A DNA stretch of 64,000 bases, taken from the NCBI GenBank assembly GCA_963791925.1, contig CAWBUA010000003.1, forward strand, positions 296,604 to 360,603, read 5' to 3'. Positions 17,423-52,952 of the stretch are shown piece after piece; position 1 is the first letter of the stretch; each line of letters opens with the position of its first letter. The stretch is from an uncultured Alphaproteobacteria bacterium (GTDB lineage: Bacteria; Pseudomonadota; Alphaproteobacteria; Rhizobiales; Xanthobacteraceae). Position numbers and translations under genes: made by a program. Under the pieces are notes generated by a model, which was given only the letters and a program-made list of their open reading frames with translations, had not been told where the DNA came from and did not search any database.

Positions 17423-17496
17423 TGGCTGGGGAACTAGGATTCGAACCTAGATTAACGGAGTCAGAGTCCGCAGTTCTACCGTTGAACTATTCCCCA
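17423..17496 (-). tRNA. tRNA-Gln (anticodon CUG), CCA encoded
   Basis: Reverse complement TGGGGAATAGTTCAACGGTAGAACTGCGGACTCTGACTCCGTTAATCTAGGTTCGAATCCTAGTTCCCCAGCCA folds as a cloverleaf. Acceptor TGGGGAA/TTCCCCA, D stem GTTC/GAAC, anticodon stem GCGGA/TCCGT with loop CTCTGAC, T stem CTAGG/CCTAG with TTCGAAT loop. Confidence 0.9.
17460..17496. repeat. Left copy (attL-like) of a 37-nt direct repeat, equal to nt 1-37 of tRNA-Gln
   Basis: gtcagagtccgcAgttctaccgttgaactattcccca matches 52916-52952 at 36 of 37 positions. Confidence 0.85.
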
Positions 17497-17539
17497 AAAC
17501 CTTTGCGGAACAAGCGCTTGTCATTCCGCTGCAACTTCC

Positions 17540-17557
17540 TAGCCTCGCTATAGCCTC
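17540..17557. repeat. 18-nt direct repeat TAGCCTCGCTATAGCCTC (left copy), a candidate arm-type recombinase site
   Basis: Identical 18-mer at 52775-52792. It contains two AGCCTC(G) heptamers 11 nt apart. Confidence 0.6.
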
Positions 17558-17724
17558 GGGTGAAAACATTCCGGGCGGTGGCCCGGGCAGGGTGTAGTCC
17601 ACCACCCGAAATTGGGCAAGCGCCTGCGCTATTGCGGCTCATGCTCACGTATGACCGCCGCCGCCCTTGCGGAGTGTCAAGCGCCGGGTTGGAATTCGCG
17701 CATGTCACTGGGCTTGTGTTGTCG

Positions 17725-18456
17725 TCACCATCGAGCCCATAGCCGTTTGGCCAATTGGTGCTCCTCCCGGCCGCTCACGTCGCCATAAATTGCGGTCGTG
17801 CGAAGCGACGCGTGGCCGAGCCATCGCTGGACCATGTGCGGCGGAACAGCTTGGAACGCGACCACTCCGAACGCGTGGCGCAAGCCCTTTGGCATGGCGG
17901 CGCTGCCGGAAATGCCCGCGTGCCTCATGACGTTCTTCACGTGGCGCCATCCGGTGCTGCAACTCCACTGCCACAGACGCCTGCCGGCGAGACCGACATC
18001 TTGCTCACGCTTCGGCAAATCAAAGACCGCGGCCAGCTCGTCGATCACTCGCGACGGCAGCGGCACTTGGCGTATGACGTGAGACCGGCGGCGTTTCAAC
18101 GTCTCTATGGCGACGATCCCGGCGTCGCGATCGATGGCGAGCGGGGTGATTGCCAATGCTTCGGAAACGCGGCAGCCGCTCCACATGAGTACCAGGCAAA
18201 ACACGCGAACCTGCGGAGGCATCGTCTCGGCCGCGGCGGCGAACCGCTGACGCTCCGTGGCATTGAGATATTTTCGCCCGCCGAAGTTCGTATGGAGGCT
18301 CATACTGTCGCGGGAGCGGCGAGCCACACTTGGGGATGAGACCGTTTGCTGCGCTCGATCGTGCAACACTATGGCCAATAGTGTTGCAATCGGATTCGCC
18401 AGCGTTTTGCGCGCGGTTGAGCGGAGGTGAAAAGCCTTTGTGAATCTCTTGGACAT
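17725..18456 (-). CDS. Small tyrosine recombinase / phage-integrase-family protein
   Basis: 243 aa. Catalytic-domain motifs SGCRVSEAL (Arg), GLRHAFG and WLGHASLRTTAIYGDV (His...Tyr). No long N-terminal arm-binding domain. Confidence 0.8.
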   Translation of the reverse strand: MSKRFTKAFHLRSTARKTLANPIATLLAIVLHDRAQQTVSSPSVARRSRDSMSLHTNFGGRKYLNATERQRFAAAAETMPPQVRVFCLVLMWSGCRVSEALAITPLAIDRDAGIVAIETLKRRRSHVIRQVPLPSRVIDELAAVFDLPKREQDVGLAGRRLWQWSCSTGWRHVKNVMRHAGISGSAAMPKGLRHAFGVVAFQAVPPHMVQRWLGHASLRTTAIYGDVSGREEHQLAKRLWARW

Positions 18457-18580
18457 ATTATTGGAGAATTATCTTGATAAATCAAAGCACTGAAACACTA
18501 TTGGCCATAGTGTACCAACTTTACCGGGGTGTGCATCTGCCTTCAGAAATTTCCACGCATTGGTGCCACGGGGGACGGCC

Positions 18581-19075
18581 ATGCGGAAAGTGCTTGTTGT
18601 TTGTATTGCGCTGTCCACCGCGCAGTGCGCTTCGACGCCGACCGTCGAGCAAGTCAATGCACAGCGCGCAAAATGGGAAGCTGACTGCAAACAAAAGGGA
18701 TATGCGCCTGACACGCAGGATTTTCAAACCTGCATTAGCCTCGCTCAGAGCCACGACCTGTCACAGCCGCTTTATAGCGGGGTGGCGGTCGGAGGTGCGA
18801 TGGGCGCGGCAGGTCTTGGCGCCATGCTTCTTGGGGCGTTTTCTGACATCCGCCTGAAGCGTGACATCGTCCGCGTGGGGCAACTTCCTAATGAAATTTC
18901 CCTGTATCGCTTCCGCTACAATTGGAGCGATGAGGAGTTTGTGGGCGTCATGGCGCAAGAGGTCCGACACATCATGCCCAAGGCGGTCATCGAAGGACCC
19001 GACGGATATCTTCGCGTCAACTACGGACTGCTCGGGTTGACGTTTATGACCTACGAACAATGGGCCGCCCAATGA
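18581..19075 (+). CDS. Secreted protein with C-terminal S74-type intramolecular chaperone (tail-fibre/endosialidase chaperone) domain
   Basis: N-terminal hydrophobic signal MRKVLVVCIALSTAQC. The C-terminal SDIRLKRDI...GVMAQEVRHIMPKAV...LRVNYGLL matches the SDxRxK...AQEV...P.AV pattern of Peptidase_S74. Confidence 0.65.
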   Translation: MRKVLVVCIALSTAQCASTPTVEQVNAQRAKWEADCKQKGYAPDTQDFQTCISLAQSHDLSQPLYSGVAVGGAMGAAGLGAMLLGAFSDIRLKRDIVRVGQLPNEISLYRFRYNWSDEEFVGVMAQEVRHIMPKAVIEGPDGYLRVNYGLLGLTFMTYEQWAAQ

Positions 19076-19128
19076 CGCCCTTCGGCTTGTGCTGCACGGC
19101 GGTCGGAGGCTGAACGGTTGAGGACCGG

Positions 19129-20859
19129 TTGAACTCGGAACCGGTGATTGCCAAGTATGCCCTGGGGGTTTGCGGGGGACTTGTGGGCATGGTTGCCGGC
19201 TTGTGCCGCGTTTTAGCGGCGCTGGCGATGTTGGCGGTTCCAGTCGTCGCCGTTGCGCAAGTCATTCCGCCGAGTGAGCAGCCCGGACGGGAGCGGCAGC
19301 AATTCATTCAGCCGCCCGCGCCGCTTGCACAGCCCGCCGCGCCAACGGTAACTTTGCCGAGCACGGTCGCGCCCAAAGGCGCCGAGAAGGTGTTTCTCCA
19401 TGTGCGCGGGGTTCGCATCGCCGGCTCGACGGTGTTCACCGCCGAGCAACTCGCGCCGCTGTATGCCGGTCTCATCGGCAAGCGTGTGTCGCTTGCGGCG
19501 ATCTACGAACTCGCGCAGCGCATCACGGCCAAATACGGCAGTGACGGCTACGTGTTGTCCCGCGCCGTCGTGCCGCCGCAGCAACTCGATCCCAAGGGCG
19601 CGGTCGTTCGCATCCAAGTCGTCGAAGGCTACATCGACAAGGTCGAATGGCCGCCGGGGCTTTCTCGCTACCGCGACTTTTTCACCGATTACGCCGCGCG
19701 GATTACCGCCCAGCGGCCGGCTAATATCCGCACCATCGAGCGCTATTTGCTCCTTGCCGGCGATTTGCCGGGCCTGAAATTTTCGAGCAGCTTGCGGCCG
19801 TCCAAAGAGACCAGTGCCTCGGTGCTCGTGGTTGCAGTTACCGAAAAGCCGTTTGACGCCAATGCGCACGTCGATAATCGCGGAACGGCGGCGCGCGGGC
19901 CGTTTGAATATTACGGCTCTGCGACCGTGAACAATTTGCTCGGGTGGCAGGAGGCGCTGACGCTGACGTATGCCGGCGTGGTGCCTCTCAAAGAACTCAA
20001 CTATGCCGCGGCCAATTACCGGCAGGTGCTTACCAGCGAAGGACTGGCGTTCTTTGCCGATTTCAGCGACGCCTGGGGCACGCCGGGAACGGCGTCGCTG
20101 GAAGCGCTGCAATACCGCACGCTCGGACCGTACGGCGACGCGGGGCTGTCGTATCCCGTCATCCGCTCGCGCGAGCGAAATCTTACGGTCTCGGGTCTGG
20201 GCTTCGCCAGCAACAGTGAGAGCGATGTATTGGGCGCGCCGTTTAACAACGACCGGCTGCGCGGCTTTCGCGCGCGGGCCGACGGCGACTTTGCCGACTC
20301 CTGGCAGGGCATCAATCAGGTCTACGGCATCGTCAGCCAAGGCATCAGGGGCCTGGGTAGCACGGCGAACGGCAATCCGCTGGCTTCGCGTGCCGTCGGC
20401 CGCGTCGATTTCAGCAAGGTCGAGGGATATGCCGGCCGCACGCAGCCGCTGCCAGCAAACTTTTCAACCTACATGGCGGCGTACGGCCAATATGCCTTTA
20501 CGCCGTTGCTAACTCCGGAACAATGCGGCTTCGGCGGCCGATATTTCGGCCGGGCGTTCGATCCGTCGCAACTACTGGGCGACTCCTGCATCGAAGCGAC
20601 CGGCGAGCTTCGATACGACTTCCGGTCCCTGCCGTGGCAGATTACGCAAGCGCAGTTCTACGGCTTCGCCGATTGGGGCGAGCTGCACACGCTCCAGGCG
20701 TCGCCCGGCACGCCGTCCATAGCCGATGCCGCGTCCGTGGGCGCCGGGACACGGCTGGGCTGGTCTAATCACATCGATGCCGACCTTTCCGTTGCGAAGG
20801 CAATCGAGGGGCCGCGCAACGACTGGCGGTTCTTTTTCGTCGTCGCGGCGAGGTATTAG
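19129..20859 (+). CDS. ShlB/FhaC/HecB-family two-partner secretion transporter (TpsB)
   Basis: POTRA-like block VRGVRIAGSTVFTAEQLAPLYAGLIGKRVSLAAIYELAQRITAKYGSDGYVLSRAVVPPQ...VVEGYIDKV, a beta-barrel C-terminus ending in aromatic residues, and a position directly upstream of the TPS-domain exoprotein. The start is uncertain (alternative ATG at 19189). Confidence 0.85.
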   Translation: MNSEPVIAKYALGVCGGLVGMVAGLCRVLAALAMLAVPVVAVAQVIPPSEQPGRERQQFIQPPAPLAQPAAPTVTLPSTVAPKGAEKVFLHVRGVRIAGSTVFTAEQLAPLYAGLIGKRVSLAAIYELAQRITAKYGSDGYVLSRAVVPPQQLDPKGAVVRIQVVEGYIDKVEWPPGLSRYRDFFTDYAARITAQRPANIRTIERYLLLAGDLPGLKFSSSLRPSKETSASVLVVAVTEKPFDANAHVDNRGTAARGPFEYYGSATVNNLLGWQEALTLTYAGVVPLKELNYAAANYRQVLTSEGLAFFADFSDAWGTPGTASLEALQYRTLGPYGDAGLSYPVIRSRERNLTVSGLGFASNSESDVLGAPFNNDRLRGFRARADGDFADSWQGINQVYGIVSQGIRGLGSTANGNPLASRAVGRVDFSKVEGYAGRTQPLPANFSTYMAAYGQYAFTPLLTPEQCGFGGRYFGRAFDPSQLLGDSCIEATGELRYDFRSLPWQITQAQFYGFADWGELHTLQASPGTPSIADAASVGAGTRLGWSNHIDADLSVAKAIEGPRNDWRFFFVVAARY

Positions 20860-20870
20860 GGGCGCATGCG

Positions 20871-23075
20871 ATGAGCCGATTGCAACGATTGTTGCTCACC
20901 ACTGCGGCGCTCCTGCCGCTCGGTTTCGCCCCGGCTTTCGCAGGGCCGAATGGCGCTACGGTCGTGGGTGGTGCGGCGACCGTGCAGGGACAGGGGACTG
21001 CGTCGGTCGTCGTCAATCAAACAACTCAGAACGCCATTATCAACTGGAACACGTTTAATATCGGCACTGGAGAGAAAACAGCGATCAATATGCCGGCCGC
21101 GAGTTCGGTCGAACTTGACCGCGTGACCGGCAATCTCGGACCTTCGCAAATTCTCGGTTCGCTTTTCTCTAACGGGCGCGTGTTTCTGGTCAATCCGGAC
21201 GGCATCCTGTTCGGGCAGGGCGCGAAGGTAAACGTCGGCGGCCTGCTGGCGACCACGCATGATATCGCCAACAGCGATTTCATGGCCGGTCGCTACAACT
21301 TTTCAATTCCCGGCATGCCGAACGCCTCCGTCGTCAACGAGGGAAGTATCACGGCGCAGACCGGCGGCTTCGCGGCGCTGGTGGCGCCCGGCGTGCGCAA
21401 CACCGGTATCATCACGGCGAAATTGGGCACCGTTGCGCTCGCGTCCGGCAATGCCTTCACGCTCGATTTCTACGGCGACAATCTCATCAATCTTGGTCTC
21501 AACGATTCCATTGCATCAAGCGTCACGGACGTTTCGACCGGACAGCCGCTCTCTTCGCTCGTAAGCAACGCCGGGACGCTGAAGGCTAATGGCGGGCGCG
21601 TCGAGCTGACCGCTGTGGCGGCCCGCGCGGTGGTTGACTCCGTCATCAACAATACCGGCGTCGTCGAAGCAAACACGATCGGCACCCATAACGGTATGAT
21701 TGTGCTTGGGGCTGCGACCGGAGCAAGCAAGCCGGCGGGGGCGCCGACGCAAACCGTCAAGGTCTCCGGCAAGCTCTCCGCGGCCGGCAAGCGCAAGGGA
21801 ACGGGCGGCACCGTGGTGGTTACGGGCGAGAATGTTCAGCTCAGCGCCGCGAACATCAATGCCTCCGGCCGCAGCGGCGGAGGGGCGGTGCTTATCGGCG
21901 GCGATACCGGCGGCGGCAATCCGAGCACGCTCGCGGCGTCAATTTCTGGAGCCGCGCTTGAGCCCTTCGCAGTGCCCACCGCCACGACGGTTGGCGTTGA
22001 CGCCAACTCCCTCATTAACGCATCGGCGACCGGCCGGGGCAATGGCGGTAAGGTCATCGTCTGGTCGAACGAGGCGACGACATTTTACGGAACCGTTCTC
22101 GCGACAGGTGGAGGTGGCGGCGGCAATGGCGGGTTTGTGGAAACGTCTGGGCATGTACTTGCCTTCAATGGCAAGGTGAATACAGGCGCACCGACCGGCG
22201 CGAAGGGCATGCTTCTGCTTGATCCTATGAACGCGATCATTGCCGCGACCGCCGGAAACGAGGTCATTACGGTCTCGTCGATTGAGAGCGCCCTGGCGAC
22301 AGGCGATGTTCTTGTTACGACCGCGGCGACGACCGGCGGCGAGGCTGGCGATATCTCGGTGGCATCGAGCCTCAGTTGGGCAAACGCCAACACGCTGACG
22401 CTCAACTCTTATCGCGACATCACCATCAATGACGGGGTGACCATTGCGAACACTGGAGCGGGAAACCTGGTGCTACGTGCTGACGCGACCGGCCTAGGCG
22501 TCGGCACGGTCAATTTCCTCGGCACCGGTCAGGTAGATTACTCGCAAAGCATTGGCGGGGTTTCAATTTACTACAACGCTGCGGACAATCCGGCAGGAAG
22601 CATTATCAACGCAACAAGCTACGCGAGCCCAACCGACTACTCACAATATGTGCTGACTAACAGCGCGGTGCCGGGACAGCTCGCGGCGTACATGCTCGTG
22701 AACTCAGTATATGATCTGCAAAATATTCAGAACAATCTGTCCGGCAATTACGCGCTCGGCGCGAATATCGACGCGAGTGGAACGGCGAGTTGGAACGCGG
22801 GTGCCGGGTTTGTGCCGATTGGGAATTCCAGTACACCATTCGTCGGAGCATTCGATGGCCAGGCACATACGATTGACAGTTTGGTAATTAACTCGTCCGC
22901 CCTTTACGTCGGATTATTCGGATATGTTGGAACATCTGGGATCGTTAAAAATCTTGGACTCACTAACGCGTTGATCGACAGCGGGCCAAACACGCTCGCC
23001 GCAGGCGGGATAGCGGGAGCGAATTCGGGACAATCGCAAATTCGTACGTCAGCGCGCCGGGGTCGGTGCCCGTGA
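20871..23075 (+). CDS. TpsA exoprotein, N-terminal segment (TPS secretion domain, beta-helix, first GLUG repeats), truncated by a frameshift
   Basis: Signal peptide followed by the TPS domain NAIINWNTFNIGTGE...VFLVNPDGILFG. Also GGGNGGFVETSG. It ends in out-of-frame junk (SQIRTSARRGRCP) after ...GGIAGANSG. Confidence 0.85.
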   Translation: MSRLQRLLLTTAALLPLGFAPAFAGPNGATVVGGAATVQGQGTASVVVNQTTQNAIINWNTFNIGTGEKTAINMPAASSVELDRVTGNLGPSQILGSLFSNGRVFLVNPDGILFGQGAKVNVGGLLATTHDIANSDFMAGRYNFSIPGMPNASVVNEGSITAQTGGFAALVAPGVRNTGIITAKLGTVALASGNAFTLDFYGDNLINLGLNDSIASSVTDVSTGQPLSSLVSNAGTLKANGGRVELTAVAARAVVDSVINNTGVVEANTIGTHNGMIVLGAATGASKPAGAPTQTVKVSGKLSAAGKRKGTGGTVVVTGENVQLSAANINASGRSGGGAVLIGGDTGGGNPSTLAASISGAALEPFAVPTATTVGVDANSLINASATGRGNGGKVIVWSNEATTFYGTVLATGGGGGGNGGFVETSGHVLAFNGKVNTGAPTGAKGMLLLDPMNAIIAATAGNEVITVSSIESALATGDVLVTTAATTGGEAGDISVASSLSWANANTLTLNSYRDITINDGVTIANTGAGNLVLRADATGLGVGTVNFLGTGQVDYSQSIGGVSIYYNAADNPAGSIINATSYASPTDYSQYVLTNSAVPGQLAAYMLVNSVYDLQNIQNNLSGNYALGANIDASGTASWNAGAGFVPIGNSSTPFVGAFDGQAHTIDSLVINSSALYVGLFGYVGTSGIVKNLGLTNALIDSGPNTLAAGGIAGANSGQSQIRTSARRGRCP

Positions 23076-26000
23076 GTACGGTGGGAACCAGCAACCAAAC
23101 CTACAGTACTTACGTGTTGGGACAATATGCGTATGTGGTCGAAGCCAACGATCTAAAAATCATAAATATCAATAATCCAAACAACCCACAGGTCGTCGGT
23201 TCCTATACGGGACTTTCAGGTGGTTATTCGGTGGTCGTTGTTGGTACCTATGCGTATGTGTCGGACTACGGTGCTGGTCTCAAAATTATAAATATTGGAA
23301 ATCCGGCGGCGCCGTCGTTGGTGGGTACGTTTCCAATTGCGATGAATTCAAACACTTCGATAGCAGTGTCAGGTAACTACGCATACCTCAACGACTATGT
23401 TAATGGCGCGGTGCGCATCGTCGATATAAGCAATCCCGCCAGCCCCAACCTCATTGCAACATACTTGCCGCCTGGTGGATTCCCAGGCTCGGTCGCGGTT
23501 TCAGGGCATTATCTCTACATCGGTGATTTTTCAGGAGCTGTCGAAATCGTCGATGTCTCAAATCCCGCCTCCCCTTCACTGGTGGGAAGTTATTTGGTCA
23601 GTCCGCTTCCTCAGCACCCAGCCGCCGGTACACCCAGTAGCCCTTTAGGGTTTTCTATTTCTGGAAACTATTTGTACGTGGCCGACCAGGGTACGGGGCT
23701 GTACATTCTTAACCTCGCAAACCCCACCTCACCGTCGCTCGTCGGCAGCTACGATCCGGGCGGCAATAGCGGTACTAGCTACACAGGTATTCAAATCGTG
23801 GGAAATTTTGCGTATTTGTCGGACAGCCTGGGAAGCTTAGTAAAGATTAACGTAAGCGATCCCGCGTTGCCGCAACTAGCGGGCGTGGCGGTCACGGGCG
23901 GAACGCCGTGGGATGTTTTCGTTGCAAATGGGTATGCATATGTGTCCGCTCGAAACAGCGGGCTGGAGATTTTCGATATCAACTCAATTGGTCCCGCCAT
24001 TAGCGGTGGTGGAAATTCGGCTGTCGGGGCGCTGGCCGGCAACAATTCTGGGGCGATCGATCAATCGTACGCAAGTGAAGTTGTCAGCGGGTATGTCAGC
24101 GTGGGAGGGCTTATTGGAGCAAACGCGGGAAGCATCTACGGATCATACGCAAGTGCACCGGTGGTCGGATTGGGACCCGTCGGGGGATTAGTCGGAAGTA
24201 ATTCAAATGCAATTTCGCAATCCTATGCGAGCGGCTCGGTCAATGGGACTACCACCGCGGGCGGACTGGTCGGAGACAATTCCGGTCCTATTTCTCAGGC
24301 GTTTGCCACTGGGAACGTATTCGGCTCAACCGCAGGGGGATTGATTGGTTCGAACGACGAATTGGGCGTGATCGCGCAAGACTTTGCGATCGGTGTGGTC
24401 GACGGCTATCAGTATACTGGCGGTCTGGTGGGTTCAAATTTGGGTCTAATTGAAGGGTCGTATGCGACTGGTGCCATTTTGGGAAATAACGACCTCGGAG
24501 GGCTGGTTGGAATAAACCTTGGAATAAACTACTCATTTACTGGAACAATTACGAATTCGTTTGCGACCGGCCCAATCCAATCCGTAGGGTACAACGTGGG
24601 AGGATTGGTCGGGGAAAACGACGGAACAATTTTTCAATCGTATGCCACAGGTGAAATAGTACAGGGCGGCGTGAATTCTGCTGGGGGCCTGGTGGGAACA
24701 AATTTTGGTTCTATCGATCAATCATACGCCAGCGGTACGGTCACCGGCGTAACAGACCTCGGTGGGCTGGTCGGACACAATAATAACGGATTGATAAGCA
24801 ACTCCTATGCGACCGGCTCTTTGGTTGATCCATACGGATTCTATCAAAATATCGGTGGGCTGGTCGGCTATGACGGCGGCAGCGTTACAGGGTCTTACTC
24901 GACGGGAGTGGTACCGGGAACAGGCAATGTTGGGGGATTGATTGGGGGCGGTGGTGGCGGACAAACAAACAATTCGTATTGGGATGTCTTGACTTCAGGA
25001 CAACCGAACAGCTTCGGTGGTAGTCCATCGCCGCCCGCACTGCTGAAGGGGGTGATCCCTGCGGGTTTCGATCAAACAATTTGGGCAATCGATGCTAACA
25101 CGAATTACGGCTACCCTTATCTACAATGGCAGCTGACGAACACAACTCAACCGCAGCTCGCGGGCTCATTGCCGACATGGTTCAGCAATTCGGTGTGGGG
25201 AAGCAATCCAAGCATCAATAACGGCTATCCCTATCTGCTGTGGCAGGTTGCGAGCACATCGCCGACAGCGCCAACGATTTTGACGCCGACAGCGGGATTA
25301 TCCCTGACACCACCTCCTCCGCCTCCACTATCTACGACAACGACCACCACGCAGAGCTTGCCGCCGGCACAGAATCAAATAAATCCGACGCAGTCGAATA
25401 CACAGGCGGCCGAATCGACGCCGCCGGTGATTGTCACACCGATTTGGAATGCGCCTCCAACCAACAACAATCTGATTCCTAACAGTTACATGTGGACCGG
25501 ACTTCTAGGCCCGATTACACCTGGAGAGCTTCTAAATAGGTCCAAGCCTCTCATTGATATAATAAATCAGTGGTGGACCAACACTGGAACTTACCAGGAT
25601 TGGACGTTCTTTGCAAAACAAATGGGCTATACCGATTTGGAGATTGCACTACTGAAACTCACTGGCTTTCAGGCTGCCGTCTACCTTACTCCGACAGGAC
25701 AACCTGTTCTCGTGTTTCAGTCAACAAAACCATGGTATCCGGCAGACTTAGCGACAGATGCCTTGAACGATCTATACGCTAAGATGGATATTCCGGATGA
25801 CGTGGCGCCCCAATACGGGTTCGCGGCTCTTTTAGCCGCTCAAGCGGAAAAGGACTATCCGTTTGGCAATCTTCTCCTGACGGGATTTTCGCTCGGCGGC
25901 GGGCTTGCCGCATATGCAGGCTCTATGGACAAGATACCCGCGGTAACGTTCGATCCGGCTGGGCTTACTCAAAGCTCTAATTACAATTCTCAATATGTTC

Positions 26001-26251
26001 TGAATTTTCAGCTCAACGGAGATCCCGCTCAAGCAGGGGGTAGTCTAATCGGCACGACAATTCAATTCGGGCAACAAACTTCAGAAGAAGCTCTTTCAGC
26101 TGTGGGAGTGCCAAGTGGAACCCCGAGCAGTTCCTTTTCGGCTCACGGCAAAGCGATGAATGCATTCAATTATCTAGCCACCACCTCCAACCTTGCAATT
26201 ATGAGCAGTACAAGCACCTCTGATACTCAGGTGTACGCTGTGGGGCCTTAG
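23066..26251 (+). CDS. TpsA exoprotein, C-terminal segment (LVIVD beta-propeller repeats, GLUG repeats, Pro/Thr linker, lipase-like alpha/beta-hydrolase end)
   Basis: About 7 repeats of the type G.YAYV.D...GL.I.D.SNP..P.LVG. Many GGLVG.N.G.I..SYA.G (GLUG) repeats. The linker is PPPPPPLSTTTTTTQ. The C-terminal domain has the GFSLGGGLAAYAG (GxSxG) nucleophile elbow. The reading frame continues upstream to about 23030 (TIANSYVSAPGS), joining the previous ORF. Confidence 0.8.
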   Translation: MPVSTVGTSNQTYSTYVLGQYAYVVEANDLKIININNPNNPQVVGSYTGLSGGYSVVVVGTYAYVSDYGAGLKIINIGNPAAPSLVGTFPIAMNSNTSIAVSGNYAYLNDYVNGAVRIVDISNPASPNLIATYLPPGGFPGSVAVSGHYLYIGDFSGAVEIVDVSNPASPSLVGSYLVSPLPQHPAAGTPSSPLGFSISGNYLYVADQGTGLYILNLANPTSPSLVGSYDPGGNSGTSYTGIQIVGNFAYLSDSLGSLVKINVSDPALPQLAGVAVTGGTPWDVFVANGYAYVSARNSGLEIFDINSIGPAISGGGNSAVGALAGNNSGAIDQSYASEVVSGYVSVGGLIGANAGSIYGSYASAPVVGLGPVGGLVGSNSNAISQSYASGSVNGTTTAGGLVGDNSGPISQAFATGNVFGSTAGGLIGSNDELGVIAQDFAIGVVDGYQYTGGLVGSNLGLIEGSYATGAILGNNDLGGLVGINLGINYSFTGTITNSFATGPIQSVGYNVGGLVGENDGTIFQSYATGEIVQGGVNSAGGLVGTNFGSIDQSYASGTVTGVTDLGGLVGHNNNGLISNSYATGSLVDPYGFYQNIGGLVGYDGGSVTGSYSTGVVPGTGNVGGLIGGGGGGQTNNSYWDVLTSGQPNSFGGSPSPPALLKGVIPAGFDQTIWAIDANTNYGYPYLQWQLTNTTQPQLAGSLPTWFSNSVWGSNPSINNGYPYLLWQVASTSPTAPTILTPTAGLSLTPPPPPPLSTTTTTTQSLPPAQNQINPTQSNTQAAESTPPVIVTPIWNAPPTNNNLIPNSYMWTGLLGPITPGELLNRSKPLIDIINQWWTNTGTYQDWTFFAKQMGYTDLEIALLKLTGFQAAVYLTPTGQPVLVFQSTKPWYPADLATDALNDLYAKMDIPDDVAPQYGFAALLAAQAEKDYPFGNLLLTGFSLGGGLAAYAGSMDKIPAVTFDPAGLTQSSNYNSQYVLNFQLNGDPAQAGGSLIGTTIQFGQQTSEEALSAVGVPSGTPSSSFSAHGKAMNAFNYLATTSNLAIMSSTSTSDTQVYAVGP

Positions 26252-26520
26252 TGACTTCTTTGCGCTGAAGCGCCCCAACCTATTGCGCCTAAAACAAGCA
26301 TAAAAAAGCCCGCCGTGAAGCCGGGGATAAAGACGAATATCGCGTCGGCACACCCGACGGTATTGCCATTCAGTTGACAATAGATAATGCCGAATACCCA
26401 CGGCCCAACCAATAATATCCCACCCAGGATCATAGTGTAAAAGCAGATGCGGTTGAAGATGTATTTCCTTTTCTTTGAGGATGATGGCTGCACGAGTTCT
26501 TTTTGTTCGCTAGTGTCCAT
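26248..26520 (-). CDS. Small membrane protein, hypothetical (convergent with tpsA)
   Basis: 90 aa with two to three hydrophobic helices (FYTMILGGILLVGPWVFGIIY, IFVFIPGFTAGFFMLVLGAIGWG). Low GC like the tpsA 3' part. Confidence 0.45.
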   Translation of the reverse strand: MDTSEQKELVQPSSSKKRKYIFNRICFYTMILGGILLVGPWVFGIIYCQLNGNTVGCADAIFVFIPGFTAGFFMLVLGAIGWGASAQRSH

Positions 26521-26866
26521 ACCGAAATCATAGCATACATTCTGAAATGCTTGGTCTTCGCGAAATCAAGTGAGTGGTTTCGGGATTGAACTCGGTGAGA
26601 AAGCCGAACGGCCGGCGCGCCAATTCAGTAGAGCGAATTTGCGATTGAAAAGCCCCGCACACCGGTGAAGGTGGCGGGGCTGAGTTCGCAGCGTTGCTCG
26701 GGCGCGAAGTTCAGAGAGTTGCTTAACGGCCCACGGCTGCTTCAAACGGATGGATTTTAAAAAGAAAGCTTCGCACTAATGCGGGGTCGCTTCGGCACAC
26801 AGGGGTCCACTAGGATGCGTCGCCTCAATGAGCACGCGCACTCCCCCTCGCCGTTCGCGCCGAAAG

Positions 26867-27052: not shown

Positions 27053-27054
27053 GC

Positions 27055-30377: not shown

Positions 30378-30382
30378 AAACT

Positions 30383-43685: not shown

Positions 43686-43795
43686 CGGCCGAGATGGAAA
43701 CGCGATCGGGAAATTGACCGAAGTTGTATTTTTCTGGGGGCGGATAAGGAAAGGGGCCGTAATGAGTTGGCCACCAGCTGAGGGGGCTGGGAAGC

Positions 43796-45208
43796 ATGGG
43801 ACGAAGAAAACGGCCTAGATTTCGAAAAAAAGAGGCCCCCGGGCGAGCTGTACCAAAGGGCCAAACATTGACCGGGCTAATATCCGGCGATGCTTTGAAG
43901 CCTGTCTACGCTGTGAAAGCCAAAGCGGTCGACGAAAAGACAGTCTCCGCTTCAAGGCCGGAAGCTCTAGCTGCCAAAATCGAGGCTGAGAAGGCTGATG
44001 GGTGGCACGTTCTTCGTAACAGTGCAAAATCGGCTCGCCTCGCCAAAGACAAGCCCATCGACCGCCAACTTGAAGATGACGTCTGGTCACTTTTATATCG
44101 AATGGGCTTCAAGGAACTGAACTTTGATCGCAATTTTTCCGTCAAAATCAACGATGGAACGGCAGAGCGGCAGCTCGACGTGTTCGCGAAAGACGACGAG
44201 ACTGTGTTCATCGTGGAATGCACTCACGCGCGGGAAGTCGGCACAAAATCCGTCAAGACTCTTCTAGAGAAAATCGCTGCAATCCGTCCGGAGGTCATTC
44301 AGGCGATTCAAAAGCACTATGGACGTGAAAGCAAGCTCAAGATCAAATTTACAATTGCGACTCGCAATATCGAATGGCGCGGCGCAGATAGAACTTTGGC
44401 TGAGAGCTCCGGCGTACCAATCATAACTGAAGAAGACCTAACGTACTTCAGTCGTCTGACCAGCATACTAAAGCACGCGGCTCGCTTTCAATTCCTCGGT
44501 CGATACTTTGAGGGGGAGAAGGTGGAAGGGCTGAGATCGAAGGTGCCCGCGACGCAAGGGCGCATCGGTAATAAGACTTTCTATAACTTCCTCATCTCGC
44601 CACACGATCTGCTGCGCATTTCTTACATCAGTCACATGGCCAAGGCTTCCAACGACGATCTGGAAACGTACCAACGGATGGTGAAGCCTTCTCGATTGGC
44701 CGCGATTGGTCAATATATCGACGACGGTGGCACCTTTCCAACAAACATTGTCATAAATTTAAAACGAGAAAATCTTCATTTCGATGTCAAAGAAAAATTC
44801 GGCGACACGGCGACCGGGATTCTTAGCCTGCCAGGACTGTATGGGTCAGCGTGGATCGTCGATGGGCAACATCGGCTTTATGGCTATGCCTACGCAACTC
44901 GCAAAGTCGAGGAAGACCGCTCGGTCGTCCCCGTACTAGCTTATGAGAACTTGCCCGTCCGCGAAGAAATTGAGCTCTTCGTGGACATCAATACTAAGCA
45001 AGTAAAAGTGAGTCGAAATCTAGTCAACGAAATTGTTTCCAGTCTGAATGTCGATGATCCAGATGCGAGAAAGCGCCTCGACGCGATGTGCGCACGTGTC
45101 GCACTTCGGCTCGACTCGCATTCGACGTCACCTCTAAAAGATCGAAGTCTTAACGGTGGCCCAGGAGAAGAATCATACCCGCTGTTTGACTCTGACTTCG
45201 CTCGCTGA
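43796..45208 (+). CDS. DGQHR-domain (DndB/ParB-like) protein with N-terminal nuclease-fold-like region, 5' segment truncated by a frameshift
   Basis: WIVDGQHRLYGYAYA (44861-44875), YQRMVKPSRLAAIGQYI, FPTNIVINL. The N-terminal QLDVFAKDDETVFIVECTHA resembles a degenerate PD-(D/E)xK core. The ORF ends in junk after ...STSPLK. Confidence 0.8.
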   Translation: MGRRKRPRFRKKEAPGRAVPKGQTLTGLISGDALKPVYAVKAKAVDEKTVSASRPEALAAKIEAEKADGWHVLRNSAKSARLAKDKPIDRQLEDDVWSLLYRMGFKELNFDRNFSVKINDGTAERQLDVFAKDDETVFIVECTHAREVGTKSVKTLLEKIAAIRPEVIQAIQKHYGRESKLKIKFTIATRNIEWRGADRTLAESSGVPIITEEDLTYFSRLTSILKHAARFQFLGRYFEGEKVEGLRSKVPATQGRIGNKTFYNFLISPHDLLRISYISHMAKASNDDLETYQRMVKPSRLAAIGQYIDDGGTFPTNIVINLKRENLHFDVKEKFGDTATGILSLPGLYGSAWIVDGQHRLYGYAYATRKVEEDRSVVPVLAYENLPVREEIELFVDINTKQVKVSRNLVNEIVSSLNVDDPDARKRLDAMCARVALRLDSHSTSPLKDRSLNGGPGEESYPLFDSDFAR

Positions 45209-46202
45209 TGGCATAGCGGAGAACAATCTTATTGGTTCTCTCTATAGGGCGCAAAAAGGCGGTGTGACGATGCTAGTTGCTGGCCCGCTCAGCGACCCAT
45301 CGGTCGATTCTAAGCTGAGCATGGACAAGGCGGTTGAAACGCTTTCGCGGTACTATGCGCTTTTTGCGAAAGGCCTCGAAAGCCATTGGGCACTCGGAGA
45401 TGATAAAGGCGGATTTCTCGCCACCAACCTCGGTCTTCGCGCCATCACGCAATTGCTTCGGCGCCTAATAGCATTTGTCGAACGGAAGGAAGAGGTGAGC
45501 GCATCGACGCTCGACCCTGAAGATATTGTCGATCGCATTAAGCCTTATGTTGATCCCGTGATTGAATTTTTCCAAACAGCAAATGCAAGTGACATTGCTA
45601 AGTTTCGCAATCGTGGCAGTTCATTACAAAGCGTTGATCAAAACTGCATGCAAATGATGGCGATCATTCACGGCGTAAAAGGGGATACCTTCGATTTAGT
45701 CGAGGTGCGGGATTGGATTCAAAGTCAAGATGCGCAGGGTACCAAGCAAGCTGGGGATATGATTGATGAGATCAACCGAATTATTTTTGCCGATGTTATC
45801 GATAGACTTAAGACAAAGTTTGGCAGCAATGAAAAGGAATGGTGGGTCCAAGGTGTGCCGGCAAAGGTACGCAACGACTGCGACAAGCAGTACAATGAAT
45901 TAAACGGCGAACATGAGAGATGGCAATTTCTTTATCTAATAAGTTATGTTGATATCGTTCTATATAATGATAATTGGGATTTGTTCAAAGAGTACTACGA
46001 CTTCTATGGCGGGGGCAAAAAGGCCGACCGTGTGCGTTGGATCGTGAAACTTAACAAGGCTCGGCAGGTAACGCATCACGCAGAGAAGGGGCCTCTTTCC
46101 AAGGATCAGGTTGAATTCGTACGACGTGTGCACGCCTTGGTCAAAGAGCACATCGAGCAGCGTAATAAGGTGACGCCAAAGCACTGCTACCTTCCGGAAT
46201 GA
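45156..46202 (+). CDS. 3' segment of the same DGQHR gene, a helical region ending in a Swt1-like HEPN-type domain
   Basis: The frame is open from 45138 (KIEVLTVAQEKNHTRCLTLTSLADGI). The C-terminus WWVQGVPAKVRNDCDKQYN...NWDLFKEYY...KLNKARQVTHHAEKG (R-x4-H at 46062-46079) parallels the HEPN end of the 47994..49118 protein. Confidence 0.7.
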   Translation: MAQEKNHTRCLTLTSLADGIAENNLIGSLYRAQKGGVTMLVAGPLSDPSVDSKLSMDKAVETLSRYYALFAKGLESHWALGDDKGGFLATNLGLRAITQLLRRLIAFVERKEEVSASTLDPEDIVDRIKPYVDPVIEFFQTANASDIAKFRNRGSSLQSVDQNCMQMMAIIHGVKGDTFDLVEVRDWIQSQDAQGTKQAGDMIDEINRIIFADVIDRLKTKFGSNEKEWWVQGVPAKVRNDCDKQYNELNGEHERWQFLYLISYVDIVLYNDNWDLFKEYYDFYGGGKKADRVRWIVKLNKARQVTHHAEKGPLSKDQVEFVRRVHALVKEHIEQRNKVTPKHCYLPE

Positions 46203-46549: not shown

Positions 46550-47107
46550 TCAGAGTGAGTTGGCGATATATGGAAAGGATGTGATGGAGCGGACGAGTTT
46601 GCGGTTGTGCTCGATGTAGAGGATGGCCTGTTTGAGTTTAGCGCGCACGGCGTCGATGGATTTCAGCGCGTAATTCTTGAAGATTTTCTCGCGGATTTCA
46701 TCCCAGAGATTTTCCTTTGGATTAAGTTCGGGCGAATACGGTGGAAGGTACAAGAGCTTGATATTGTCGGGAAGGGTCAGTTGGCCACAGCGATGGTTGG
46801 GCGCGCCGTCGAGAACCAAAAGGATGTCCTGGCGGGCGAACCTGCGCGCCAGCACGTCGAGGAAGGCCTGAAAGCAGGCGGTGTTCGACGTCGGCATGAT
46901 CAGATAGACGCAAACTCCGTCTTTTGGAGAGACTGCGCCGTACAAATAGATGTATTCGCGAATGAGCTGAGCGGCGACCGCTGGTCTCGTTCCGATCGGC
47001 GCCCAGCATGGCCGTGGCCGATTAATGCGGCCGAAGCGCGCTTCATCGGCGAACATGATGCGCAGATGCCGACCGCGCCTCTTGGCCGCCCGCCGAGCCT
47101 GCCTCAC
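46550..47107 (-). CDS. IS630-family transposase, DDE-domain part (orfB)
   Basis: FADEARFG, LVLDGAPNHRC and YLPPYSPELNPKENLWDEIR form the typical DD(34)E region. The frame is open upstream to 47128, inside the A7 run. Confidence 0.85.
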   Translation of the reverse strand: MRQARRAAKRRGRHLRIMFADEARFGRINRPRPCWAPIGTRPAVAAQLIREYIYLYGAVSPKDGVCVYLIMPTSNTACFQAFLDVLARRFARQDILLVLDGAPNHRCGQLTLPDNIKLLYLPPYSPELNPKENLWDEIREKIFKNYALKSIDAVRAKLKQAILYIEHNRKLVRSITSFPYIANSL

Positions 47108-47595
47108 TGCATCAGGAAAGCCGTTTTTTTAAAAGCTTTTTGCGCCGCGAGGTCGCGCTTGGGATGAAACGGCCGCGGCATCAGCTTGCGCCAGCCCTGC
47201 CGGTGCAAGAGATTGTACACCGTGCTGTCGCTGGTCACATGCCCGATCGCCTGTTCATAGGCCGCTTTGAGATCGTGAATGTTCAACATCTCGCCGGCGC
47301 CGGCAGCTTTGGCAAAGCGCGCCAGCAAGGCCTTTTCCGTCGCCACGGTCATGTTCTCGTGCTTGCGTCCGCCATTCGGCTTGGGCTTAAGCGCCTTGAT
47401 GCCACCGTGAGCATAGGCCATGTGCGCGCGGTTCACCGTGCTCAGCGATACACCCATCGCTGCCGCAATCGCGCCCTGCGTCATCCCGCTCTCGCGTAAC
47501 AGCACCATTTGAATGCGCTGGCGCTGTCCGGCCGTGATCTTCCATCGTAGCGCGGTTTTGAGCCGCCGAACCTCGGCTTTGCTGCATTCGACCAT
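47104..47595 (-). CDS. IS630-family transposase, HTH part (orfA)
   Basis: RQRIQMVLLRESGMTQGAIAAAMGVSLSTVNR (HTH) and VYNLLHRQGWRKL. ATG at 47595 lies inside the element. orfB is in the -1 frame. Confidence 0.8.
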   Translation of the reverse strand: MVECSKAEVRRLKTALRWKITAGQRQRIQMVLLRESGMTQGAIAAAMGVSLSTVNRAHMAYAHGGIKALKPKPNGGRKHENMTVATEKALLARFAKAAGAGEMLNIHDLKAAYEQAIGHVTSDSTVYNLLHRQGWRKLMPRPFHPKRDLAAQKAFKKTAFLMQ

Positions 47596-47715
47596 CTGTT
47601 TTCCCCGAATCAGATAGCCAAGCGAATCACACTCAGCGCCTCGAAAACAATTCCCCTGCCTTCCGCTCTCAGCGCAGAAGACTGCCCGATTCAATCCGTT
47701 ATGGAGCTGGTATAA

Positions 47716-47893
47716 GTTGGCAATTTTGTTAAATCCCAATGAGCCCGATACTGTAACCCTTCTCGGTGTGATCGAAAAGCTAGATCAGAGCCGCACTGAT
47801 CAGACGTTCACGGCGGCTGAAGCGGAAATGCTGACCGTGGCGCGCGCTTTGCTCAAGCGAGAATGGGTTCGCATTAAAGAAGAGCTTAAGTGA
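47716..47893 (+). pseudogene. 3' part of the IS630-split gene
   Basis: KLAILLNPNEPDTVTLLGVIEKLDQSRTDQTFTAAEAEMLTVARALLKREWVRIKEELK-stop, in frame with 46229-46536 after IS removal. Confidence 0.6.
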
Positions 47894-49766: not shown

Positions 49767-51594
49767 ATGACTTCCCACACCGAGAATATATTATCCAGCC
49801 AAGGGGGTGGGAGGCACAGCATGGCGATCACCGATCAAGCTATCGATCAGGTCTTTTCCGATTTGAAAAGGACTTGCGGCGGAGTACGCAATGACTACTT
49901 CGCTCTTTTGTATTTGATGCAGGAGTTTGGCTTAGAGCGCGACCTGGCGATTTAGCAAGTGGCGTTCGGGGGGAATGATTATGGCATTGATGGTTTTCAT
50001 TTCGACGCTTTGAAACGAAACTTCTATCTCTTTCAGTTCAAATATTCCACGTCATATGAACAATTCAAGCCGTCATTCAAACGACTGGCGGACTTTGGTA
50101 TGGAGCGAATTTTTGGGGCGCGCACCCAGGACCAACATCAGAACCAGTTGTTACTTCAAATAAAAAGTTGTCTTCTCGAAAATGAAGCAATTATAGACCG
50201 GGTATATATTCACTTTGTCTTTACAGGGGACCCGGCGGAGGCTGAGCGTAGCCAGGTGCTCGATAAGCTGCGCGAGAATCTGGAAGATAAAAAATATCTC
50301 ATAGACCAGCGTTTCGACCGCCCCGTGACGCTGGTGATCGAGTTTCGTTCCGCCCGAACCCGAAAGGTCGGAGCGGCCACCCATTTACGTAAGACGCATA
50401 GCTACCCGATTGAACTCGACAAAACAATAACCCGCGCTGGTCCGAATGGTGAGACAATGACGGTGGGCTTCATCCGAACTCGTTGATCTCAATGCTATGT
50501 ATAGAGAAATGGGAGCGCGCTTCTTTGAGCGCAATATTCGCGCTGCGCTAGCAGAGGATAAAGCTGTCAATCGATCTATCCAGCAGTCGTTCAAAGCTAT
50601 TGTCTTGGAAGGCAAGGAGGAAGCCAGTATCTTCGCATTCAATCATAACGGTGTTACTTTGTTCGCGGAAGACCTGCACCAAGTGAATGGCTCATTTAAT
50701 AAAATTACAGAACCGCGTGTTTTGAATGGCGCGCAGACGGTTACGACGTTTGCACGATTTATGAAGGCCAATGAGGGAAATAGCAGATTAGCAGAGCGTA
50801 AAGACGCCTTAAACGATCTTAGTGTGATGTGCCGCATCATCACAAATGCCGTGCCGGAATTTGTCACCACCGTCACAATTAATAACAACCGTCAAAATCC
50901 GGTTGACCCTTGGAACCTCCACGCGAATGATATGATTTAACTGGAACTACAAGATAAATTTCGGGACGAGCTTGGCATCTATTATGAACGTCAGGAGAAG
51001 GCATTTGAAAATTTGAGCGATGAGGAGCTTTGGGAGCAACAAATCACCGAGCATCGTGCGCTGGAATTAACGCGGGTTGCGCGAACATTCCTCGTAAGTG
51101 ATGGCGACATCGATAAACTTGCACGATTTAGGGAAGTATTTGAGGACGACCGGATTTACAGCCAGGTGTTTAGTGACAATAGGCTGAGAGCAGATTTGAG
51201 AAAGATTGTCCTTTGCTACAAGGTGCAGTTCAGACTGGGGCGCCTGAGTTACGACATTGTAGATAAGGGAGCCAACAAATATGCCTACGTTCTTCGCTCG
51301 CGCAATTTGCTGTGGGCCTTACTCTGTCAGGCAATTCTTAACGACCCAAAGCTGGAAGAGCGCGCTGAGAAGTTCGGCAAGGGCCTCAGCTTAGAGGCAC
51401 AGTACACAGAGTACCTTTCGGGCTTAGCCACAACACGCTGCCGCTTCGTTCTTGCGGACCTTGTTGCGGACAAAACGTATGCTGGAAAGAGTGCGGAAGG
51501 AAATTTCAGCTTTATGCGGACTAACGCAGCGTACAAGAGGGCGATGGAAATCGCCTATAAGCGCTGGCACTGGGTGGAAAAGCGTTTGAGGTAA
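49767..51594 (+). pseudogene. AIPR-family abortive-infection gene, decayed (two in-frame stops and one frameshift)
   Basis: Four consecutive ORFs read as one AIPR-like protein: GGNDYGIDGFHF...LFQFKYS and later FNHNGVTLFAEDL...VLNGAQTVTTF. TAG at 49953-49955 and TAA at 50938-50940 are in frame. There is a +1 shift near 50474-50476. Confidence 0.75.
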
Positions 51595-51635
51595 TTCAGA
51601 TGAATAGCGGCACGTTCAGCAGTGGTGACCAACGG

Positions 51636-52772
51636 TCATGCCGCTCGGGCGGTGTCAGGTACGTCTTCGGCGGCAGGGAGCTTCGAAAGATAATTCTCCC
51701 ATTTTTCAATGGCCGCCCGCATCTCTGGCAAATAGGTATAAACGTCGTACGTGCGCTCCATATCTGTTCGGGCTGAGATGTGATTGACGAGCCGCTCGGC
51801 TATGTGGGGTGCTACGCCCAACTTGCCGAGGTTGGTGCGGAAGGTCCGGCGAATGTCGTGCAGCGTCCAGCTGGTGACACCGCTTATTCGATCGAGCGTG
51901 GCCTTGGCTTTGCCCCAGCCGCAGAATGGCTTGTTGGGCTTATTCCTGGCGGGGAACAGAAGTCCTATATCGGCTTGCGCCGCGAGTATCTCTTTCGCCC
52001 GTGCGCTGATTGGAAGGGTATGCGCCTGCTTGTTTTTGGTGATCTCGCCGGGGAGCGTAATGGCGTCAGTCCCGATCCAGGCCCGGTTGAGCGCGGCGGT
52101 TTCCGTTTCGCGCTGACCTAGGAGAATCAGCAATCGGACCATCGTTTGAAAATGTCGCGGGAGTTTCTCGGAGTTGCACGCGTCCCAAATCTTTTTCAAT
52201 TCAACATCGGTCAGAATGCGGGACCGGCGTTTGCGCTCATAGGCTGATATGCCAACTACAGGATTGTCGGTGATGTAGCGGCGCCCCATGCACCAATTGA
52301 AAAAAATAATGGCAACGGTGCGGGCATGATTATGCTCGGCCGGCACGTCTTTCAATCTTTGGAGCCGGTGCGCGATCTGCGCGTGAGTTACATCCCTCAA
52401 CTGACCCTTGAAGGAGAAATGTCGTTTGAGGTGTCGCGTGTAGTCGGCGAGGGTGCGCGGTCTGGCGCTCTTGGCTTTCTCCGCGAGGAAAAGCTGCACC
52501 GCCTCGGAATAGGGGAGGGACTGCGGACGCAGCCGGCCAAGGGTGAATTCGGCGAGCAGCCGTTTTGCTTCAGCGCGCGCTTCCTGGAGCGAAATGACGG
52601 GGTATCGGCCTAAGGAAATAAAGCGACGGTCCGACCCAACCTGCAAAAAGAAGGTGCGTGTATCGCCCTGAGATACACGGACTCCAAATCCATGCAGGGT
52701 GTCATCGCAGAGTTTGATCTGACCCTTGGCAGGCACAGGTGTCGCTCGGATCGCAACGTCGGTGAGACGCAT
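51636..52772 (-). CDS. P4-type tyrosine integrase (DUF4102 arm-binding N-domain plus catalytic domain)
   Basis: N-terminus MRLTDVAIRATPVPAKGQIKLCDDTLHGFGVRVSQGDTRTFFLQ is typical of P4-like integrases. C-terminus HDIRRTFRTNLGKLG...LVNH...YDVYTY carries the catalytic residues. Lies 143 nt from the tRNA-derived repeat. Confidence 0.9.
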   Translation of the reverse strand: MRLTDVAIRATPVPAKGQIKLCDDTLHGFGVRVSQGDTRTFFLQVGSDRRFISLGRYPVISLQEARAEAKRLLAEFTLGRLRPQSLPYSEAVQLFLAEKAKSARPRTLADYTRHLKRHFSFKGQLRDVTHAQIAHRLQRLKDVPAEHNHARTVAIIFFNWCMGRRYITDNPVVGISAYERKRRSRILTDVELKKIWDACNSEKLPRHFQTMVRLLILLGQRETETAALNRAWIGTDAITLPGEITKNKQAHTLPISARAKEILAAQADIGLLFPARNKPNKPFCGWGKAKATLDRISGVTSWTLHDIRRTFRTNLGKLGVAPHIAERLVNHISARTDMERTYDVYTYLPEMRAAIEKWENYLSKLPAAEDVPDTARAA

Positions 52773-52774
52773 CT

Positions 52775-52792
52775 TAGCCTCGCTATAGCCTC
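52775..52792. repeat. 18-nt direct repeat TAGCCTCGCTATAGCCTC (right copy)
   Basis: Identical to 17540-17557. Starts 3 nt upstream of the integrase start codon. Confidence 0.6.
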
Positions 52793-52915
52793 AGACAGCC
52801 CCGGTGCTGGGGCGTGAAGCTATGCGCGACGTTGGATCAGAAGTGGCCGGTAATAAAGGACAAGTTCGACGTTGATGTGGAACGGTGGAGCACCATGAAA
52901 CAGGTGCGGCACTAT

Positions 52916-52952
52916 GTCAGAGTCCGCTGTTCTACCGTTGAACTATTCCCCA
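52916..52952 (-). repeat. Right copy (attR-like) of the 37-nt repeat, a tRNA-Gln 5'-half fragment
   Basis: gtcagagtccgcTgttctaccgttgaactattcccca. The only difference from the intact gene is at tRNA position 25 (unpaired). No 3' half follows. Confidence 0.85.

Follow-up and report, generated by a model that had tools for sequence, protein, structure and literature searches.

Analysis of a 64,000-nt stretch of contig CAWBUA010000003.1, from an uncultured alphaproteobacterium of the Xanthobacteraceae, revealed that a 35,456-bp interval (17497–52952) is bounded by a duplication of the 5′ half of a tRNA gene, tRNA-Gln(CTG). The stretch is called the window below, all positions refer to it, and L-numbers (e.g., L001 and L110) denote the loci and contigs compared with it. 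The interval represents a single integrative and probably mobilisable element, and it very probably entered the anticodon loop of the tRNA-Gln(CTG) gene by means of a heterobivalent tyrosine integrase and an element attachment site (attP) carrying tRNA nucleotides (nt) 1–37. This arrangement, designated here as 5′-type, is common within one group of alphaproteobacterial integrases.

The only tRNA called in the window by ARAGORN was tRNA-Gln(CTG) on the minus strand, which had an Rfam tRNA score of 67.9 bits. Nucleotides 1–37 of this gene, TGGGGAATAGTTCAACGGTAGAACTGCGGACTCTGAC, whose 3′ limit is the final base of the anticodon loop, occur twice on the minus strand: at 17460–17496 with no mismatch and at 52916–52952 with 36 of 37 positions identical. 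The two copies are spaced 35,456 bp from start to start, and the number of such matches expected by chance was 0.00 in dinucleotide-preserving shuffles. The lone mismatch (T in the intact gene and A in the orphan copy) is at the unpaired position that separates the D stem from the anticodon stem. The limits of similarity between the copies fall precisely at tRNA nt 1 and, at the other end, at the final base of the anticodon loop. The window contains only these two copies of the 37-nt core, and no repeat of the tRNA 3′ half (17423–17459) was found, even when three mismatches were allowed. The 5′ end of the intact gene points into the interval, and the orphan 5′ half lies upstream of the gene in the same orientation. 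An earlier reading of the window made from its letters (the sequence-only reading) had described this geometry, including the extent and identity of the orphan half, and both ARAGORN and the repeat search agreed with it.

Replicate junctions were found in other genomes. The window, L001, L003, L018, and L050 share the order of host flank, tRNA-Gln nt 1–37, arm, and integrase, and the integrases were 87% (L001/L002), 82% (L003), 76% (L050), and 46% (L018) identical to that of the window. In L001/L002, L003, L050, and L018, nt 1–37 of tRNA-Gln end at the loop and are followed by an arm of approximately 140 bp and the integrase ATG, with no intact tRNA nearby. The window and L001 were 91.5% identical over 352 bp comprising the orphan half, the arm, and the start of the integrase gene. 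The window, L001, and L050 have host flanks that bear no relation to one another or to the flank common to L003 and L018. These last two loci shared 91% identity over 3,048 bp of host flank and 5′ half, with similarity ending approximately 11 nt beyond the loop, and their islands differ. At the other end, L102, L103, and L104 were returned when metagenomes were scanned with the tRNA 3′ end and the downstream gene as the anchor. L102 and L104 were 97% identical from approximately 10 nt before tRNA nt 1 downstream, and their upstream sequences were unrelated. Upstream of the tRNA, L102 carries arm repeats and type I restriction-modification genes; in L103, a promoter-like motif and a gene for UDP-glucose dehydrogenase are found there, which is what an unoccupied site would be expected to show. 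The same-flank pairs (L003/L018 and L102/L104) and the replicate junctions therefore locate the limits of the element to nt 1 of the tRNA and to its anticodon loop. The sequence-only reading had named different junctions in island-free relatives as grounds for giving up its proposal; what we observed was the same junction positions in independent loci.

The gene beside the orphan half is intact and encodes a P4-like tyrosine integrase. As in heterobivalent (lambda/P4-type) integrases, an N-terminal arm-binding domain is combined with an R-K-H-R-H-Y catalytic domain, and residues R221, K246, H305, R308, H331, and Y342 were invariant across a 26-sequence family alignment. The start codon lies 143 bp from the orphan half, and transcription runs away from the orphan half into the element. 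A candidate arm-type site of 18 nt, GAGGCTAtagcGAGGCTA, in which a 7-mer recurs with an 11-bp period, has exactly two copies in the window (0.01 expected), one at each element end and both in the same orientation. The copy in the P arm, between the orphan half and the integrase gene, ends 2 nt ahead of the integrase ATG (52775–52792), and the copy in the P′ arm, at the opposite end, lies 43 bp upstream of the rebuilt tRNA (17540–17557). Such a pair would be expected if the P and P′ arms of attP each carried an arm-type site. Analogous 7-mer pairs with the 11-bp period were present on both arms of L012, and other loci had a 7-mer pair on whichever arm was sequenced (upstream of the tRNA in L102 and L104, and before the integrase in most others). 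A scan of viral contigs with the 18-mer arm site returned only nine unrelated low-GC matches.

We propose that attP would recombine with the chromosomal gene for tRNA-Gln(CTG) at its anticodon loop, the tRNA copy in attP being nt 1–37, i.e., the 5′ half and not the usual 3′ portion. Because attP carries the 5′ half, the 5′ half of the element would be joined to the native 3′ half to give the intact gene. The native 5′ half would be displaced together with its promoter by 35.5 kb, to a position directly upstream of the integrase gene. The anticodon stem forms a dyad around the 7-nt loop, and strand exchange would occur within this loop; the lone mismatch, located between the D and anticodon stems, fits a crossover on its 3′ side. 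After integration, the rebuilt tRNA would be transcribed from element sequence, either from a promoter that escaped recognition within the P′ arm (228 bp) or by read-through from the upstream recombinase gene, and the displaced native promoter would read into the integrase gene. That the element supplies or displaces the 5′ half had already been suggested by the sequence-only reading, and it fits the present arrangement, in which the native half is still joined to a promoter-like site and element DNA lies upstream of the intact gene.

To determine how widespread the arrangement is, one genome per species was scanned with the integrase-family alignment, which returned 80 loci. Approximately 32 of these were 5′-type, with the tRNA 5′ half in the sense of the integrase, approximately 46 were 3′-type, with the tRNA 3′ half in antisense, and two were left unresolved. 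In approximately 78 of the 80 loci, the anticodon-loop end of the orphan half faces the integrase, 127–188 bp upstream of its start. Typical P4-like islands have the integrase by the 3′ end of the intact tRNA, whereas in this clade almost none of the 80 loci had an intact tRNA within 1.5 kb of the integrase, which adjoins the orphan half instead. The tRNAs used include Gln, Thr, Arg, Lys, Met, Phe, Cys, Pro, and Leu, and the same species are used in both orientations; the 5′-type loci alone involve ten or more different tRNAs with the same precise junctions and a constant spacing. In a neighbour-joining tree of the integrases, the two types were intermixed, and the nearest neighbour was of the opposite type for 12 of the 80 classified integrases. 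For example, the integrase of 5′-type L033 was 70–71% identical to 3′-type Thr-CGT integrases and had an arm motif in common with them.

A complete 5′-type island of 6.9 kb was identified on tRNA-Arg(TCG) in Nitrobacter sp. TKz-YC01 (L012), where the Arg-TCG orphan half is followed by the integrase and, 6.7 kb downstream, by the intact tRNA, with arm repeats before the integrase and upstream of the rebuilt tRNA. L064 was considered as a second complete island and was not used as such, as its downstream tRNA-Thr does not match the orphan half in sequence and is flanked by arm repeats at its 3′ end. At this locus (9800–14480), an orphan Thr-TGT 5′ half lies by the integrase and the differing intact tRNA-Thr(TGT) lies 4.4 kb downstream; part of the region upstream of the intact tRNA-Thr is duplicated near the orphan half, and the arrangement is probably nested or tandem. 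Just before the P′ arm, L012 (16380–16520) and L064 (14120–14210) both have a terminal short open reading frame (ORF) with a conserved cysteine motif (FC..YC..W), which could encode a recombination directionality factor. In addition to the 7-mer pair ahead of the ATG, many P arms of both types (loci L004–L083) carry a pair of CATAG/CATGG-like motifs approximately 11 bp apart, e.g., CATAGcatcaCATAG, positioned 10–40 nt from the core towards the integrase; the motifs may form an additional set of sites for protein binding (integrase arm, IHF, or excisionase).

The two types also share their host-side core arm when read in the integrase sense: ACGGT for Arg-CCT, GCGGA for Met-CAT, and CCGCA for Thr-CGT, with Gln-CTG differing slightly between types (GCGGA vs. 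ACGGA). The 7-nt loop alone is inverted between the types, which also have the same integrase spacing. The loop is thus the only element-proximal end common to 5′-type and 3′-type relatives, and this family comparison supports the crossover site in the anticodon loop or stem that the sequence-only reading had put forward. A dyad-symmetric stem would offer an equivalent core arm in either orientation, so the same integrase scaffold could use a tRNA either way, which would explain why 5′-half and 3′-half elements are mixed within the clade. The direction of insertion would be set by the orientation of the loop copy in attP, and this direction would in turn decide which tRNA half the element must carry.

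A promoter-like site at 53014–52986 is the only consensus promoter near the right end, and it points through the orphan half towards the integrase. This site is probably the native tRNA-Gln promoter. The scan detected no terminator-like hairpin in the P arm of the window or in that of most 5′-type relatives. The idea that 5′-type arms are enriched in terminators that insulate the integrase was discarded (4 of 35 vs. 3 of 45, with none in the window). Between the presumed native promoter and the aldolase gene, there is a perfect 13-nt tandem repeat, CCGTGGGACACCG, in 2.9 copies (53144–53181). A broader proposal, which we put forward tentatively and regard as possible rather than probable, is that elements of this clade have repeatedly switched between the 3′ and 5′ halves of the same tRNA, likely via the dyad-symmetric stem (approximately 40% are 5′-type, and opposite types reach 71% integrase identity), and that 5′-type integration swaps promoters. 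In this proposal, a strong native tRNA promoter would be placed before the integrase without an intervening terminator, and the element would drive an important host tRNA, which would couple integrase expression, tRNA supply, and element retention. Such coupling by promoter swap may be undescribed for bacteria.

The G + C content raised the question of whether the entire interval is foreign. It was 0.57–0.65 at 17–22 kb and approximately 0.52 at 23–53 kb, compared with 0.60–0.64 in the flanks, which would suit an explanation in which only the low-GC part (approximately 22–53 kb) was acquired. The region at 17.5–22 kb with the recombinase and ShlB genes would then be native, the tRNA would keep its native upstream DNA, and the left junction would lie elsewhere. 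However, homologs of the accessory recombinase (90% and 84% identity) terminate a backbone of Replic_Relax, DnaG-like, TpsA, and ShlB genes in four other contigs (L107–L110), and the surroundings of the backbone differ among these contigs. In addition, the arm-type site at 17540–17557 is identical to the one before the integrase, and no internal copy of the core exists, making a native left part quite improbable. The recurrence of the backbone in L107–L110 indicates that the whole interval is one element and that it belongs to a family exchanging integration modules; L110, for instance, has a conventional integrase of 406 aa at the 3′ end of tRNA-Leu(CAA). In the window, the backbone (17725–35874) comprises the small tyrosine recombinase, ShlB, the two-partner secretion (TPS) exoprotein, a DnaG-type zinc-ribbon protein, and Replic_Relax, and together with L107–L110 it seems to define a family of integrative elements that carry a two-partner secretion module. 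The accessory recombinase was also considered as a decayed integrase copy from a tandem array, and this was rejected on the basis of its 26% identity to the main integrase, the lack of an arm-binding domain, and the lack of a third core copy.

Two insertion sequence (IS) elements lie inside the island and approximately 58% of the clade is 3′-type, so a conventional 3′-type insertion might have been rearranged later by inversion, deletion, or tandem-element recombination, leaving an accidental 5′ duplication. Yet the 5′-type recurs with identical junctions and constant spacing in approximately 32 loci on ten or more tRNAs, and L012 is a compact and complete 5′-type island. A single rearranged ancestor is also at odds with the different tRNAs and the scatter in the tree. 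Rearrangement is therefore considered very unlikely. Equally hard to credit is an attP derived from a whole captured tRNA gene, in which the element arm by the orphan half would be a decayed tRNA 3′ half and attR would encode a tRNA-like RNA. Rfam aligned 52875–52952 (minus strand) to the full tRNA model at 17.4 bits, with six of seven acceptor pairs and a T-arm-like hairpin, but this falls short of the 29-bit threshold (E = 0.53), and the genuine 5′ half accounts for the score. The decayed 3′ half was not supported by the clade-wide control either, in which acceptor complementarity averaged 5.79 of 7 in 34 5′-type loci vs. 5.89 in mismatched controls. Finally, the possibility that the 37-nt piece is a chance match or a decayed remnant of a separate, unrelated tRNA-Gln gene, with no attachment sites bounding the interval, was raised by the sequence-only reading itself and draws on the single mismatch, from which the repeat alone cannot date the event, and on the empty site not found for this host in the relatives searched, but it is effectively refuted by the replicate junctions, as at least four other loci, with at least two further unrelated flanks, have the same truncated half equally far from a homologous integrase, the match limits are exact at nt 1 and the loop with zero chance matches expected, and matching arm-type sites lie just inside both ends.

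Integration of the element into the anticodon loop through its 5′-half attP remains the preferred explanation, and several points weigh against it. No island-free syntenic relative of this host lineage (empty attB) was found via the flanking genes. No record matched UreG or the integrase exactly, aldolase homologs (84–90% identity) had synteny no further than TctC-aldolase and no tRNA nearby, L105 stops short of the site with diverged intergenic DNA, and the gene order of L106 is different. The L003/L018 and L102/L104 pairs and the unoccupied-looking site in L103 give indirect evidence in its place. The position of the crossover within the 37 nt of identity is deduced from sequence comparison. 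No sigma-70 consensus promoter was found in the P′ arm upstream of the rebuilt tRNA, and inspection by eye of the four P′ arms of the window, L012, L102, and L104 gave no convincing shared −35/−10. A terminator-like hairpin (17571–17586) also lies upstream of the rebuilt tRNA, followed by the arm site and then 43 bp. With this hairpin and without a recognised promoter, expression of the rebuilt tRNA is only assumed. The neighbour-joining tree carries no support values. Furthermore, the two IS elements and a truncated AIPR/AbiU-like gene indicate some decay of the element, and its present-day mobility is therefore uncertain.

Islands at the 5′ part of tRNA genes have been reported previously. 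Among 3,919 islands in tRNA genes (tDNAs), Islander lists 3,760 with 3′ fragments and 159 with 5′ fragments, and its configuration filter provides for the latter (Hudson, Lau and Williams, NAR 2015; PMC4383910). The window has the same layout as this 5′-fragment class, with an intact tDNA, a co-oriented cognate 5′ fragment upstream, and a tyrosine integrase between them, and its length falls within the 2–200 kb range of Islander. The statement of the sequence-only reading that integrases almost always regenerate the 3′ part thus holds (96% in Islander; PMC4383910), but the novelty it implied was overstated, since exceptions are catalogued. The Islander paper gives a count only, with nothing on integrase clade, promoter consequence, or alternation with 3′-type relatives (PMC4383910). 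According to a review, the rebuilt tRNA in bacteria keeps the original promoter with very few exceptions, and use of the tRNA 5′ half by pTN3-like archaeal integrases is “seldomly encountered in bacteria” (PMC8371274). Williams 2002, as far as it is represented in reviews, likewise speaks of “very few exceptions” in bacteria (PMC8371274).

In Thermococcus, attB of the pTN3/TKV4-type elements is the tRNA 5′ half, with 41 bp of identity and a minimal site of nt 2–44 (Cossu et al. 2017, PMC5495485; PMC8371274). Their SSV-type “suicidal” integrase has an ORF that spans attP and is split on integration, and expression of the tRNA is attributed to the integrase promoter (PMC5495485; PMC8371274). The window element also uses the tRNA 5′ half, but its integrase is bacterial and P4-like, remains intact, lies at the element end opposite the rebuilt tRNA, and is accompanied by candidate arm-type sites. 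Because the integrase ORF is not split, the element is not a member of the pTN3 family, although it is alike in principle. Klebsiella pneumoniae arg2 islands with integrase clade I.d lie upstream of the tDNA and have a repeat corresponding to its 5′ part (10.1101/2020.11.02.365908). That repeat, in Gammaproteobacteria, covers the acceptor 5′ strand, D-stem, and D-loop (the “D-loop” sublocation), whereas the repeat in the window reaches through the anticodon loop. The anticodon-loop sublocation class, as summarised in 10.1101/2020.11.02.365908 and PMC8371274, resembles the window clade in its element-proximal 7-nt loop, dyad-symmetric stem, and varied tRNAs per subfamily, and the window repeat accordingly runs to the final base of the loop, which the dyad-symmetric stem flanks. 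Usual members of the class, as far as these summaries describe them, carry the loop to the 3′ end, in contrast to nt 1 to the loop in the window element. The integrase also has the domain architecture of P4-like Arm-DNA-bind_3 (DUF4102) integrases, which have tandem arm-type repeats in their att arms. Considering the 159 Islander 5′-fragment islands, the archaeal pTN3 elements, and the Klebsiella arg2 islands, the arrangement in the window is rare but not new in kind. In the literature searched, Williams 2002 excepted, neither the frequency of the 5′-type within this clade nor its alternation with the 3′-type on the same tRNAs was described, and a prior description is possible.

The features of the element are listed in Table 1. 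The defence-type cargo consists of a TdeIII-type endonuclease with an N6/N4 methyltransferase, a pair of GHKL ATPases, and a DndB/DpdB-like protein with its partner, and a GNAT acetyltransferase is also among the element genes. Profile searches of window ORFs of at least 100 aa identified no type IV secretion (mating-pair) components. With Replic_Relax and VirD4/TraG-like proteins present and these components absent, the element is a putative integrative mobilisable element rather than an integrative and conjugative element. Between the mobilisation and restriction-modification genes, a non-coding 23-nt, partly palindromic tandem repeat of approximately three copies (37621–37699) could be an origin or a binding array.

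Table 1. Features of the tRNA-Gln(CTG) element and its ends, by position in the window.
Feature	Position	Strand	Basis or remark
Intact tRNA-Gln(CTG); native 3′ half 17423–17459; nt 1–37 (17460–17496) as attL core copy	17423–17496	−	ARAGORN, Rfam, repeat search
Element arm P′, 228 bp; present upstream region of the rebuilt tRNA	17497–17724	−	Sequence, 18-mer search, promoter/terminator scan
Accessory tyrosine recombinase, 243 aa, catalytic domain only	17725–18456	−	Pfam Phage_integrase 1e-15; end of conserved element backbone
Two-partner secretion module: ShlB/POTRA transporter, TPS-domain exoprotein, LVIVD/GLUG repeat protein	19129–26251	+	Pfam; element backbone
IS256/Mutator-family transposase, secondary insertion	27953–29245	−	Pfam Transposase_mut 1.3e-67
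Mobilisation module: Replic_Relax, VirD4/TraG-like coupling ATPase, further AAA/TraG-D_C protein	30597–35874	−	Pfam; NCBIfam weak VirD4-like match
Defence-type cargo	38747–46202	.	Pfam; PADLOC MTase_II and DpdB
IS630-family transposase, two ORFs (HTH and DDE_3)	46550–47739	−	Pfam
Truncated AIPR/AbiU-like gene, 147 aa vs. 308-position profile	50497–50940	+	
Integrase, 378 aa	51636–52772	−	Pfam Arm-DNA-bind_3 2.5e-11 and Phage_integrase 1.7e-09; family alignment; homologs
Element arm P, 143 bp; between orphan half and integrase ATG	52773–52915	−	Sequence
Orphan native 5′ half of tRNA-Gln, nt 1–37 (attR core copy)	52916–52952	−	Repeat search
Promoter-like site GTGAAA, 17 nt, TAAAAT	52986–53014	−	Consensus scan

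The host flanks are chromosomal, with genes for urease accessory proteins to the left and genes for a class II aldolase and TctC receptors to the right. In the left flank, a match to Rfam RF02514 (5′ ureB sRNA, described in Helicobacter; 99.6 bits) lies antisense in the 5′ part of the large urease subunit gene (13499–13787, minus strand); it may reflect conserved coding sequence only and not a real antisense RNA. A 14-nt tandem repeat, ATGGGGTCGTCATG, is present in four copies at the junction of two minus-strand ORFs (1376–1430). In the right flank, paralogous TctC-family solute receptors are encoded approximately 3 kb apart on the minus strand (53998–54981 and 56960–57958), and their DNA repeats are 71–74% identical.

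The single locus is of moderate to low interest, and the clade-level pattern and the proposed promoter exchange are of somewhat more. Island finders that look for 3′ fragments only miss or misplace approximately 40% of the clade, and those expecting the integrase by the intact tRNA miss or misplace nearly all of its members. Paired 5′-type and 3′-type relatives on the same tRNA provide a clean system for the evolution of attachment-site orientation at a symmetric core. The standard reason for regeneration of the 3′ part is that the tRNA gene retains its own promoter. Islands of the 5′-type break this rule and are thus natural test cases for the takeover of host tRNA transcription by an element, and they would also show the outcome of redirecting a strong tRNA promoter into an integrase gene.

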